From: an uncultured Clostridia bacterium
Lineage (GTDB): Bacteria; Bacillota; Clostridia; TANB77; CAG-508
Reading direction: 5' to 3'
NCBI GenBank assembly: GCA_963558185.1
Contig: CAUWFE010000002.1
Span: 24,460 to 88,459 of the forward strand
Length of the DNA: 64,000 nucleotides
This document shows positions 3,915-8,121 of this stretch, in pieces. A program made the translations under genes and the position numbers. How positions within the stretch are numbered: position 1 is the first letter of the stretch; each line of letters opens with the position of its first letter. The notes under the pieces were generated by a model. It was not told where the DNA came from and did not search any database. It saw only the letters and a program-made list of their open reading frames with translations.

Positions 3915-4748
3915 ATGAATGGGGAAAATAAAATGATAGAAAATTTAGAAAAGTGTGAAAATAATAGTTTAGAAAAAAAGAATATATTTGAAGAAAGATT
4001 ATCAAAATTAAAAAATATACAAGAAGCAATAGAGTTAGATGATGACGTAAAAGAAGCAGTAAAAAAACAAGAAGTAGATGAGAATTACATCAAATATATT
4101 AGAAACTCTATTGAAGATAAATTATTTTGCAATATAAATTTTGATAAAATAAGTACAAAAGTATTAATTGAGAAATTATGCCCAGAGATAATAAAAAGAC
4201 TGCAAGATGTGCAAAATATTAACCTAGATCAATTAAATATAGAGAATGTAGGAGAACATTTTGAAAATCAAATTCATTACTTAGACAAAATTTGTGTATA
4301 TGGAAATAGTTTTGTTTGTTTATTTGGTATTAATGATCAAAATTTAGATGATGCAATCGTATATGAAAAAAGAAAATTTTCTAGAGAAGATAGAATAGAA
4401 GCAGTTCAGTCAAAATATGAAATAGGCAAAAAAATAGAATTAGAACAATATGATGAATATTATTTAGGAATTGAACCAGATAGAATAAAAGTATTTTCAG
4501 AAAGAAAAATGTTAGCATTAGCTCCTATTGAAGAAACACCATTTGATAAGATAAAAAATAGATTATCTAAAATTTTTAATTTAAATATGTTCACACATAA
4601 AAAGAAAATATTGCCACATTTAGATTTAGTATATGATACAAATCCGAATCGTTGGAAGAACTTTGAAAGTAATAGTAAAACAGATGCAAAAATTAGAATG
4701 AAATTTTTACTTGCTAAAGAAAGAGAACAAGTAAAAAATGAACTTTAA
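3915..4748 (+). CDS. hypothetical protein (277 aa, no recognisable domain)
   Basis: Long ORF with AGGAG upstream (3896-3900). ATG 3933 is an alternative start. I recognise no motifs. Confidence 0.55.
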   Translation: MNGENKMIENLEKCENNSLEKKNIFEERLSKLKNIQEAIELDDDVKEAVKKQEVDENYIKYIRNSIEDKLFCNINFDKISTKVLIEKLCPEIIKRLQDVQNINLDQLNIENVGEHFENQIHYLDKICVYGNSFVCLFGINDQNLDDAIVYEKRKFSREDRIEAVQSKYEIGKKIELEQYDEYYLGIEPDRIKVFSERKMLALAPIEETPFDKIKNRLSKIFNLNMFTHKKKILPHLDLVYDTNPNRWKNFESNSKTDAKIRMKFLLAKEREQVKNEL

Positions 4749-4797
4749 ATATGTGTTATATAGGTAAAAGTTAAAAAAACGCATCATAAAAAACTCA

Positions 4798-4823
4798 AGG
4801 GTAATATTTTATGAAATTACCCT
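4798..4823. terminator. Stem-loop AGGGTAAT / ATTACCCT after the 277-aa ORF (orientation ambiguous)
   Basis: An 8-bp stem (4798-4805 with 4816-4823). The T-run lies on the minus-strand side (the A-run at 4773-4793 on the plus strand), and there is no T-run downstream on the plus strand. Confidence 0.4.
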
Positions 4824-4832
4824 GAAAATGTA

Positions 4833-4862
4833 TTGACTTTTGTTAATAAAAAAGGTTATAAT
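4833..4862 (+). promoter_or_regulatory. Sigma-A type promoter for the repeat RNA
   Basis: TTGACT (4833-4838), an 18-nt spacer, then TATAAT (4857-4862). Confidence 0.65.
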
Positions 4863-4902
4863 GAATATAATAATAGAGATACATGATGTATCTTGTCCAA
4901 AC

Positions 4903-5007
4903 CAAATGTTAACCGCCACCCTGTTGGCGAAATATAAATGCACAGGTGAGCAAATGTTACTCGCAACCCTACTTGCGACCAATAAATGCGTAGGTGGACA
5001 AATGTTA
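4903..5007 (+). repeat. 48-nt direct repeats (2 full units plus a 9-nt start of a third)
   Basis: R1 is CAAATGTTAACCGCCACCCTGTTGGCGAAATATAAATGCACAGGTGAG. R2 is CAAATGTTACTCGCAACCCTACTTGCGACCAATAAATGCGTAGGTGGA. By manual alignment 35 of 48 positions are identical. Confidence 0.9.
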
Positions 5008-5010
5008 ATA

Positions 5011-5042
5011 AAAATCTACCTTTTAGGAGGTAGATTTTTTAT
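5011..5042 (+). terminator. Intrinsic terminator (usable in both directions)
   Basis: Stem ATCTACCT/AGGTAGAT (5014-5035), flanked by an A-run upstream and TTTTTTATT downstream. Confidence 0.8.
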
Positions 5043-5072
5043 TCGTTACCACTGGAAAAAGCTAACAATTTG

Positions 5073-5101
5073 TTGACATAATATCAAATGAATGGTATAA
5101 T
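5073..5101 (+). promoter_or_regulatory. Consensus sigma-A promoter for the 243-aa ORF
   Basis: TTGACA (5073-5078), a 17-nt spacer, then TATAAT (5096-5101). Confidence 0.7.
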
Positions 5102-5167
5102 GTAATAGTACGTTGTTAAATACAACTTGTAGTTTAATTTACTTTTAAATTAAGGAGGAAAAAACAA

Positions 5168-5899
5168 ATGAAAGAGAACATGGAGTATTTTTTTGAAGGA
5201 TTAGAAGAACTGAAAGCCACTGTGCCAGAATTGTATGCACGGTATTCCCACAATAATTTGTTAATTGAACAAATTAATTACGGAGAAAATAAAAGATGGC
5301 TGGTTACCTATGTAAAAAAAGATGGTGACATGGAAAGAGAATATGTTTCTTTAAATGATGGTGTATACCCGGTATTAAAGCTGATTGCAAATGCTCTTTT
5401 AGATACAATGGCAGAAAACAGAGAAGCTTTAAAGCATACTGAAACAGGACAAAACATAACAGGGGAGTACATACTAAGACAAACAATTTTAAGATTCATA
5501 ACCAGAAATTTTATGTTACAGAAATACGAAGAATTAAATACTGAAGGTAGAGATACAGTTAAACAGCTGATGTCAGATGTAAAAAAGCTTAAAGAAAGCA
5601 GTTTACAAAAGGTAAAGACAAAAGAGGCAAAACAAATTGTATCTATCCTAGATATGGATGATTCAAAAGAGTATATTATAACATGGAAATTAAAGCAGAA
5701 AACAACAGGAGGAATCGAATATATCACAGCTGAAAACAGTATAGTAACCAAAACAGATCTGTTTATAGTAGTGTCCTATTGTCACGAAATGCTCCGAATG
5801 CTTCGGAAAAAAATGAAAAGATTTAATGAAAATGATGATTTCTACAAAGATGCTATTTTCTTAATAGAAAAAATTGAAAATTTCGAAGCAACATTATAA
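5168..5899 (+). CDS. hypothetical protein (243 aa), orphan
   Basis: Strong RBS AAGGAGG seven nt upstream of the ATG. The coding sequence is visibly richer in G/C than its neighbours. No motif recognised. Confidence 0.65.
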   Translation: MKENMEYFFEGLEELKATVPELYARYSHNNLLIEQINYGENKRWLVTYVKKDGDMEREYVSLNDGVYPVLKLIANALLDTMAENREALKHTETGQNITGEYILRQTILRFITRNFMLQKYEELNTEGRDTVKQLMSDVKKLKESSLQKVKTKEAKQIVSILDMDDSKEYIITWKLKQKTTGGIEYITAENSIVTKTDLFIVVSYCHEMLRMLRKKMKRFNENDDFYKDAIFLIEKIENFEATL

Positions 5900-7065: not shown

Positions 7066-7170
7066 TAGCGTACGGTAATATCATACAAATTGTAATAAAT
7101 GTAGTAAAAATAGAATAATAAATCATCTAAATATGTTATTATGAGTTATATTACAAGGAAAGTGATAGTT

Positions 7171-8121
7171 ATGGAAAAAGAAAATGATAATGTTATTTTA
7201 GTAAATAAAGAATCAGATGTAGAAAAATATGAAACAGAAAAAATAAAAAATTTAATTTATACAATTAGAGGAAAACAAGTAATGTTAGATAATGATGTAG
7301 CTATGTTATATCATTATCCAACTAAACGTATAAATGAAGCAGTAAGAAGAAACATCGAGAGATTTCCTGAAAATTTTTGCTTTAAATTAACTGAAATTGA
7401 AGTAGTAAACTTGAGGTCGCAATTTGCGACCTCAAGTTTAGAAAAAGAAAATTATGGAGGTAGAAGATATTTGCCATATGTTTTTACAGAACAAGGCATC
7501 GCTATGCTTTCAGGTTTGTTAAAGAATGATATTGCAATTCAAGTAAGTATAAATATAATGAATGCTTTTGTTGAAATGAGGAGATTTATAGCAACCAATG
7601 GGCAAGTATTTGAAAGACTAACTAGCATAGAATATAGGGTGTTGGAACAAAATAAAAGGTTAACAGAACATGAAAAGAAGTTTGAAAAAGTTTTTGATGA
7701 ACTTCAAAAAAATGAAAAAATAGAATTAAAACAAAGCATATTCTTTGATGGACAAATCTATGATGCATATAGTTTAATTATAGATATTATAAAGAAAGCA
7801 AAACAAAAAATTTTAATCATAGACAATTACATAGATGATAGTATTTTGAAAATGTTATCAAAGAAAAATAAAGATGTAGAAGTCGTAATTTTGACATCGC
7901 AAAATAGTAATCTGAATAAATTAGACATCAATAAATTTAATAAACAATATCCAATTTTAAAAGTGGCAACAACAAATAAATTTCATGATAGATTTATCGT
8001 GATAGATAATAAAGAATTATATCATATAGGAGCTTCTTTAAAAGATTTGGGAAAGAAGTGCTTTGCAATTTCAAAAATTGAAGACGAAGAATATATAGAG
8101 AAAATAAGCAATTATAGTTGA
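7171..8121 (+). CDS. ORF6N/KilA-N-type DNA-binding protein with a PLD-like C-terminal domain
   Basis: IRGKQVMLDNDVAMLY...NIERFPENFCFKLT...GGRRYLPYVFTEQGIAMLSGLL is the ORF6N signature. The C-terminus has HDRFIVIDNKELYHIGASLKD, which resembles HxK-x4-D...GS with K replaced by R. I place the start at ATG 7171 with RBS AAGGAAAG. Confidence 0.75.
   Translation: MEKENDNVILVNKESDVEKYETEKIKNLIYTIRGKQVMLDNDVAMLYHYPTKRINEAVRRNIERFPENFCFKLTEIEVVNLRSQFATSSLEKENYGGRRYLPYVFTEQGIAMLSGLLKNDIAIQVSINIMNAFVEMRRFIATNGQVFERLTSIEYRVLEQNKRLTEHEKKFEKVFDELQKNEKIELKQSIFFDGQIYDAYSLIIDIIKKAKQKILIIDNYIDDSILKMLSKKNKDVEVVILTSQNSNLNKLDINKFNKQYPILKVATTNKFHDRFIVIDNKELYHIGASLKDLGKKCFAISKIEDEEYIEKISNYS

Follow-up and report, generated by a model that had tools for sequence, protein, structure and literature searches.

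What is a tandem array of RNA pseudoknots, built in the manner of a type III antitoxin, when no toxin gene lies beside it? The question is raised by a short transcription unit at positions 4825-5040 of a 64-kb stretch of DNA from an uncultured gut Clostridia bacterium; throughout, the window means the whole of that stretch. An earlier note on this DNA, made by a model that saw only the letters and a list of open reading frames (ORFs), described a promoter, repeats of 48 nucleotides (nt) and a terminator, likened the product to a type III antitoxin RNA without a recognisable toxin, and offered as readings a new toxin family, an orphan antitoxin array or a different class of RNA. The second of these has held. 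Homologues of the array elsewhere are linked to cptN, no cptN was found in the 64 kb, and the unit is very probably an orphan cptI gene, the RNA-antitoxin half of a CptIN toxin-antitoxin system, flanked by two conserved chromosomal genes to which it is unrelated. The element is of a known kind, in a toxin-less state, and no new class of RNA.

Organisation of the transcription unit

The features of the unit are as follows, with S1 and S2 denoting the stems, and L1 and L2 the loops, of each pseudoknot.

4825-5040, plus strand: whole cptI module from promoter to terminator, 216 bp, homologous to the antitoxin half of cptIN loci elsewhere
4833-4862, plus strand: sigma-70-type promoter, -35 box TTGACT (4833-4838), -10 box TATAAT (4857-4862), 18-nt spacer, 11 of 12 consensus positions
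4876-4894, plus strand: leader hairpin in the interval between promoter and repeat 1, arms GAGATACA and TGTATCTT, loop TGA, present in the minimum-free-energy fold
4903-4950, plus strand: cptI repeat 1, variable R1 type, 48 nt; S1 4914-4918/4925-4929, L1 C4919, S2 4920-4924/4942-4946, A-rich L2 4930-4941
4932-4940, plus strand: AUAUAAAUG inside L2 of repeat 1
4951-4998, plus strand: cptI repeat 2, conserved R2 type; S1 4961-4966/4973-4978, L1 C4967, S2 4968-4972/4990-4994, L2 4979-4989
4999-5007, plus strand: third repeat head CAAATGTTA, 9 nt, the 3' junction of repeat 2 and putative CptN processing site, present in all homologous arrays
5010-5040, plus strand: intrinsic terminator, 12-bp perfect stem 5010-5021/5028-5039, loop TTTAGG, then a T-run

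The promoter, the strong terminator and the two 48-nt repeats with their third 9-nt head are as they had been described, and the leader hairpin at 4876-4894 is an addition to that description. From the position of the promoter, transcription would start at about 4869-4871. The promoter sequence is identical in three toxin-linked loci (L171, L204 and L286). The leader hairpin is conserved across 12 distinct loci; its arms pair in 93% of cells, and compensatory changes give AGATGTT/AACATCT in L291 and TGATGC/GCATCA in L285. The terminator is also kept in homologous loci, where it divides cptI from cptN. The two repeats are identical at 35 of 48 positions (73%, 13 differences), and the array amounts to 2.19 copies of a 48-nt repeat. 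The R1 type of the window also occurs upstream of cptN in L286-L289, and repeat 2 is 1 nt away from an R2 unit common to six toxin-linked loci.

An exact 12-nt direct repeat, TGTTAATAAAAA, has one copy in the promoter spacer (4841-4852) and the other where the third head meets the terminator (5003-5014). The same pair is present in L204, and it may be a vestige of the assembly of the module or a recombination substrate.

The earlier note saw no credible ORF in the unit. There is indeed no credible gene, but a frame of 78 codons (4840-5076; 71 amino acids (aa) from ATG 4861) went unmentioned. It is open over the entire unit because 48 nt is equal to 16 codons.

Identification as a cptI array

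A cmscan search of 4600-5400 against Rfam at E<=10, the first check that had been proposed for this locus, placed no family on the repeats and returned only terminator-like or A/T-rich chance matches far below gathering scores, so that no Rfam family accounts for the fold. Neither the riboswitch models of Rfam nor ToxI, if present in the library, matched the repeats. A blastn search with the unit found nothing among PLSDB plasmids or INPHARED phages beyond chance matches of A/T-rich, promoter-like sequence. In viral contigs, patterns made from the head plus the 5' half of S1 and from the R2 core had no matches, a degenerate core pattern had five chance matches of which none was confirmed, and a two-head pattern returned chance noise with no covariance-model score better than E=0.16; CptN protein was sought in the same contigs and none was found.

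Relatives were recovered by two other routes. In the first, the accidental open frame was translated and used for a protein-database search, which retrieved 37 short "proteins" (P0015-P0051), 32 of them at E<1e-3. These are gene-caller artefacts over homologous arrays, and several run past the terminator into a downstream gene beginning MKVENGKFYFIKDEFF. In L204 (931-1641) the array frame is even fused with cptN into a 236-aa ORF. The accidental frame is in itself a handle by which cptI arrays can be located through protein search.

In the second route a three-head DNA pattern was sought on metagenome contigs and the matches were filtered by a covariance model built from the two repeats of the window, giving nine metagenome loci at a covariance-model E<=4.5e-12. 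All nine have the same promoter, leader hairpin, two 48-nt units, third head and terminator, and in all nine a ribosome-binding site and the same gene follow about 20 nt past the T-run. A search of this kind had been suggested as a means of learning whether the covariation holds and which ORF co-occurs; it does hold, and the ORF is cptN. Further loci with the same promoter, leader hairpin, array of two 48-nt units and terminator were found in ENA and Logan. The contigs of these relatives come from human- and animal-gut metagenomes.

The product of the downstream gene in L204 is a protein of 163 aa starting MKVENGKFYF. It matches NCBIfam model NF047359, an equivalog entitled "type III toxin-antitoxin system CptIN family toxin", at 168.3 bits (E=9.5e-50, cut-off 90) and the CptN of PDB 4RMO at E=1.2e-20, and it has no matching model in Pfam. 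Positions 4825-5040 of the window align without gaps to 916-1131 of L204 with 200 of 216 positions identical (93%). Another toxin-linked relative is L286, which shares the R1 type of the window and reaches 8 codons into cptN; here 202 of 214 positions are identical (94%) and only three of the 105 array positions differ. The similarity stops directly past the T-run of the terminator, where the other loci go on with a ribosome-binding site and the beginning of cptN. Because near-identical arrays elsewhere lie directly upstream of bona fide cptN, the unit of the window is, on sequence homology, a cptI array of the CptIN family, and what had been a resemblance to type III antitoxin RNA becomes a matter of homology.

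Two arrangements among the relatives deserve mention in their own right. In L181 (103-285) CptN agrees with the L204 type over residues 1-61 only and then diverges (KRPCYYCFKSKKYDHIIWFIPISTK), which suggests that CptN types have recombined behind an unchanged array. L283 (987-1170) and L284 (248-440) have another cptI array, which begins 13 nt past the cptN stop codon. A third unit, pseudoknot-like but degenerate (AGAACCGCTGACCAATATGCGGAATATAAATGGTTGGACC), comes next and then a terminator; there is no second toxin, and the order is antitoxin, toxin, antitoxin.

Fold and covariation

The earlier note drew an H-type pseudoknot with a stem P1 (4914-4918/4925-4929 in repeat 1, 4962-4966/4973-4977 in repeat 2) and a stem P2 (4920-4924/4942-4946 and 4968-4972/4990-4994). 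All of these pairs form in both repeats, and the three compensatory changes that it pointed to (repeat positions 15:24, 21:41 and 22:40) are present. The RNA folding energy of the unit lies at z = -3.9 relative to shuffles. Covariation between the two copies alone is not significant, its score being reached by 72 of 500 shuffles. For a fuller test of the fold, 26 distinct repeat units were collected from the window and 22 loci and aligned, and the pseudoknot as drawn was scored with one extra pair in P1 (11:28). Standard pairs fill 97.2% of cells, against 32-42% with slid partners, and the covariation score was reached by none of 500 shuffles. Pair 15:24 is AU in 20 units and CG in six, pair 21:41 is AU in 18 and GC in eight, and pair 22:40 is CG in 13 and UA in 13; the added pair 11:28 is UA in 14 units and CG in six. 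The pseudoknot drawn from two copies is therefore upheld by the covariation of 26. Stem 1 leads through an L1 of one base to stem 2; the two stems meet without a junction loop, and L2 is long and rich in A.

Every array of this clade is a hetero-repeat that sets a variable R1 (at least three classes of L2 and stem) before an almost invariant R2. The repeats of cptI have usually been reported as near-identical (PMC12283969). As the CptIN complex is a ring of two RNAs and two proteins, a mixed complex containing both R1 and R2 is conceivable.

Comparison with characterised systems

The nearest characterised system is CptIN of Eubacterium rectale (PDB 4RMO; PMC4627078), in which tandem repeats likewise lie between a promoter and a terminator. 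The 45-nt CptI RNA of that system, reconstructed from a primer given in the same work, folds, like the repeats of the window, into an H-type pseudoknot; both stems are 5 bp long, L1 is one base, S2 runs into S1' without a loop, and L2 is long and A-rich (PMC4627078). Its L2 stretch A27-G35 (AUAUAAAUG, 9 nt) is the same as window positions 4932-4940 and holds A29 and U30, mutation of which abolishes antitoxicity (PMC4627078). The junctions are single-stranded and A-rich in both cases, and the E. rectale CptN is homologous to the partner protein of the window's sister loci (E=1.2e-20). The window differs in having a repeat of 48 rather than 45 nt and an L2 of 11-12 rather than 9 nt, in its repeats being only 73% identical (a variable R1 and a conserved R2), in its conserved leader hairpin and in the lack of cptN. 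Published cptI arrays have repeats of 40-48 nt in 1.9-3.4 copies (PMC3401426), and the 48 nt and 2.19 copies of the window lie inside these ranges.

Truncated-toxin cptIN loci have been described from Bryantella formatexigens, Lachnospiraceae 9_1_43BFAA and others (PMC3401426). These share with the window full repeats and a terminator, a degraded toxin, a chromosomal position and a gut Firmicutes host. They retain toxin fragments of 45-101 aa, because the survey that found them was toxin-seeded, whereas the toxin of the window is wholly gone; a protein-based search therefore could not have found this locus.

More distant is ToxIN of Pectobacterium atrosepticum, which has the same order of promoter, repeats, terminator and toxin and a pseudoknot processed by its own toxin, but belongs to a different family with 36-nt repeats, triplex pseudoknots, a heterohexameric complex and a ToxN/AbiQ toxin. 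The window has neither repeats of about 36 nt nor a ToxN/AbiQ gene, and the partner in its sister loci is CptN. Among type II systems there are orphan antitoxins, for example the chromosomal ccd of Erwinia chrysanthemi, which lack a working cognate toxin and can neutralise a plasmid-borne toxin in trans; these are proteins, whereas the product of the window array would be RNA. The pseudo-ToxI of phage PhiTE is also a toxin-less, antitoxin-like array able to act in trans (PMC5086642), although it is a phage-borne anti-defence device and the window array is chromosomal. The window unit is slightly unusual in being a clean orphan with a working-looking promoter, in having, as the arrays of its clade always do, a variable R1 and an almost invariant R2, and in its conserved leader hairpin. 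A limited search of the literature turned up no account of orphan type III arrays on chromosomes.

Proposed mechanism

Transcription from the unit's own strong promoter to its own terminator would give an RNA of about 175 nt starting near 4870, in which the leader hairpin is followed by two H-type pseudoknots, each of 48 nt, with invariant CAAAUGUUA junctions. Where the locus is complete, such junctions are cut by CptN, the endoribonuclease encoded about 20 nt past the terminator, and each processed pseudoknot binds CptN and holds it inactive. This is modelled on what has been established for the family. The terminator limits read-through from the transcribed array into cptN (PMC4627078, PMC3401426, PMC5086642). 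The cut made by CptN lies 3' of an adenine in the single-stranded junction and leaves a 2',3'-cyclic phosphate; two processed pseudoknots with two CptN molecules form an inactive heterotetramer (PMC4627078). In the window the cut would be expected within the CAAA of each head, at any one of several bonds; head position 4 is the sole invariant adenine in the repeat alignment.

The window has no cptN, and the RNA would find nothing in cis by which to be processed or which it could neutralise; it would remain unprocessed and without a target. The earlier note had held that the lack of a processed 48-nt species would count against its reading. This does not apply here, because the transcript of an orphan is expected to stay unprocessed where there is no CptN. 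The remnant RNA could neutralise a closely related CptN only if that protein were supplied in trans, and recognition between CptI and CptN is highly specific (PMC4627078). As to history, the toxin would have been lost and the antitoxin would have survived, since loss of the toxin is always tolerated and loss of the antitoxin first is lethal.

Absence and probable loss of the toxin

The statement that the array has no recognisable toxin stands for the window as a whole: tblastn with CptN over the 64 kb gave a best E=0.05, and a CptN profile hidden Markov model run against the 468 six-frame ORFs of the window gave a best E=0.24. A complete CptIN locus has cptN directly past the terminator, where the window has an unrelated gene encoding 243 aa. 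The window holds a cptI gene, not a CptIN module. Nothing informative matched the flanks of the 216-bp unit, including the 30 nt past the terminator, and neither a toxin remnant nor an insertion scar was seen there.

Among the relatives, toxin genes at all stages of decay accompany intact arrays. The cptN gene is frameshifted in L287 and L289 and has an internal deletion in L288. In L280-L282 only the last 32 or so codons are left, with damage to the -10 box and to a conserved L2 base as well. L285 has an intact array and no toxin; the gene past that array is presumably rlmN-like, as we read it from its translated N-terminus. L290 is possibly another orphan, on a short contig. That full arrays can stand beside truncated toxins had already been noted by Blower et al. 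(PMC3401426). In that survey cptIN was found solely on chromosomes (PMC3401426). Two intact cptIN loci of the present clade are accompanied by a Mob_Pre relaxase (L193, 6896-8143) and by a large serine recombinase (L204, 2038-3630), which points to integrative mobilisable elements as carriers.

The array of the window is most likely a remnant left by loss of the toxin. Several points weigh against this. No trace of cptN adjoins the array, so that the former presence of a toxin at the site cannot be shown. The absence of cptN covers 64 kb, and a cognate cptN elsewhere in the genome would make the array a second copy of the antitoxin. Finally, the array has not decayed: promoter, three heads, both pseudoknots and terminator are intact, unlike those of the toxin-less L280, which is damaged. 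This intactness is equally compatible with selective retention and with recent loss.

Selective retention is the alternative that survives best, although we consider it unlikely. According to this explanation the toxin-less array is under selection as a trans-acting immunity or anti-addiction RNA against CptN from related mobilisable elements, and its host could lose or resist such elements or escape the effects of abortive infection and addiction. No part of the array is damaged, and two independent samples have it in identical form (L002 and L003; 22 more similar places are listed), but identity among strains may reflect mere recency. The small distance from the toxin-linked array of L286 makes cross-neutralisation of that type of CptN plausible, although the high specificity of CptI-CptN pairs (PMC4627078) would keep any benefit narrow. 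Intact cptIN loci of the clade do occur in mobile contexts, as in L193 and L204. Against the explanation, a search of viral contigs yielded neither matching arrays nor CptN. A second intact orphan has arisen independently in another chromosomal context (L285), whereas decay is visible in other toxin-less arrays (L280), which speaks for orphans being neutral as a rule. There is a precedent in the phage-borne pseudo-ToxI, which neutralises ToxN in trans (PMC5086642). In its strongest form the idea is that of a selected chromosomal RNA "vaccine" that disarms the CptN of mobilisable elements or prophages in the same gut community, and this too must be regarded as doubtful. If true, it would give an orphan type III RNA antitoxin on a bacterial chromosome its first anti-addiction or anti-abortive-infection role, and the recurrence of intact orphans (the window and L285) together with the invariant R2 unit would be the signature of such a "vaccine". 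A remnant of toxin loss is still the preferred explanation of the array.

Neighbouring genes and the site of insertion

The array lies between two genes:

3915-4748: ORF of 277 aa, upstream neighbour
5168-5899: ORF of 243 aa, downstream neighbour, with its own promoter at 5073-5101 (12 of 12 consensus positions, in agreement with the earlier note)

Could the array be the antitoxin of one of these products, in which case it would mark a new toxin family? The order of promoter, repeats, terminator and ORF mimics that of a type III locus, and a search of Pfam and NCBIfam placed neither ORF in a family. The proteins themselves argue otherwise. Neither the 243-aa nor the 277-aa protein proved similar to CptN when the comparison that had been called for was made, in line with the first impression that the 243-aa ORF is not toxin-like, and at other loci it is CptN that accompanies near-identical arrays. 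AlphaFold models the 243-aa protein too poorly to be informative (predicted local distance difference test score, pLDDT, 57), and a Foldseek search with it against PDB gave no match at E<=0.001, whether to ToxN, CptN or Kid.

The distribution of the two genes is also against such a link. The 243-aa protein forms two clusters among 5.8 billion proteins. An 81%-identical homologue in L001 has the same promoter and 5' untranslated region, and its similarity to the window sets in precisely at that promoter (about window position 5070), upstream of which L001 has no array. The family of the 277-aa protein was found at 36 loci in metagenome-assembled genomes of uncultured gut Clostridia, and none of the 36 has an array downstream. 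In L004 and L005 the 277-aa homologue is directly followed by a promoter, a similar 5' untranslated hairpin and a 243-aa homologue with 31-35% identity. The association of the array with the 243-aa gene was rejected on the grounds that the closest relative lacks an array and that the protein has only two clusters, and that with the 277-aa gene on the grounds of the 36 array-free loci. The array is independent of both neighbours, and its interpretation as the antitoxin of a new toxin family is very improbable. Because the genes occur elsewhere without an array (the 243-aa gene in L001, the 277-aa gene at the 36 loci and both together in L004 and L005), the two are older as a pair than the RNA unit, and the unit is an insertion between them in this lineage.

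Several observations concern the 243-aa gene and its surroundings. The ORF has a weak PADLOC match to KwaB/DUF4868 (E=0.0028). Between its promoter and its ribosome-binding site lies a stem-loop, GTTGT-TAAAT-ACAAC, at 5111-5131. This stem-loop is conserved, with a compensatory ATTGC/GCAAT in L001 and GTTGT/ACAAC around another loop in L004 and L005; against Rfam it has only weak sub-threshold matches (caiA and freshwater-2, E 1-5), and it may be a cis-regulatory element of the 243-aa gene family. Further downstream, an ORF6N-domain protein (7141-8121) corresponds to the PADLOC candidate defence family PDC-S05 (E=1e-122). This gene is missing in the same-species strain L003, and the stretch from the 243-aa gene to asnB is therefore a small variable islet.

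Other explanations of the repeats

It could also be supposed that the unit lies outside toxin-antitoxin biology and is a tandem ligand-sensing riboswitch or a small RNA acting as a protein sponge. Compact A-rich H-type pseudoknots are found in the preQ1-I and SAM-II riboswitches as well, and the unit ends in a terminator. However, no Rfam family matches the repeats at E<=10 and the downstream gene has its own promoter. The linkage to CptN and the match to CptI at the level of sequence account for every feature, and with the CptI crystal structure at hand a different class of RNA is needless; we give it hardly any credence.

The last possibility, that the repeats encode a protein of 71-78 aa with 16-aa repeats (QMLTATLLAKYKCTGE and QMLLATLLATNKCVGG), can practically be dismissed. 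A frame does stay open for 78 codons in AT-rich DNA, it makes four of the 13 differences synonymous, and public gene callers have often called such ORFs (the 32 database "proteins" at E<1e-3). Against it, ATG 4861 lies inside the -10 box, the frame crosses the terminator and reaches the next promoter, coding does not account for the covariation of positions 40 and 41 with 22 and 21, and the antitoxin of this family has been shown by experiment to be RNA (PMC4627078). A small repeat protein was rejected on conservation as well, since the first unit is 47 nt long in L291 and 49 nt in L285 (P0044, P0050), which shifts the frame of repeat 1, yet all RNA pairs are kept.

Implications

The value of the orphan cptI gene is mainly one of annotation. 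Type III antitoxins are missing from protein-based annotation, and the array of the window has no Rfam match either. Surveys seeded with toxins cannot find toxin-less arrays, and the open frame over the arrays has put dozens of spurious "proteins" into public protein sets. The set of loci assembled here, which leads from intact cptIN by way of frameshifts and partial deletions to a clean orphan, illustrates the one-way decay expected of toxin-antitoxin systems. It also supplies an alignment with covariation from nature for the CptI fold, which the survey of 2012 was unable to align. If orphans of this kind are selected, then RNA antitoxins can serve the immunity of the host against addictive mobile elements.

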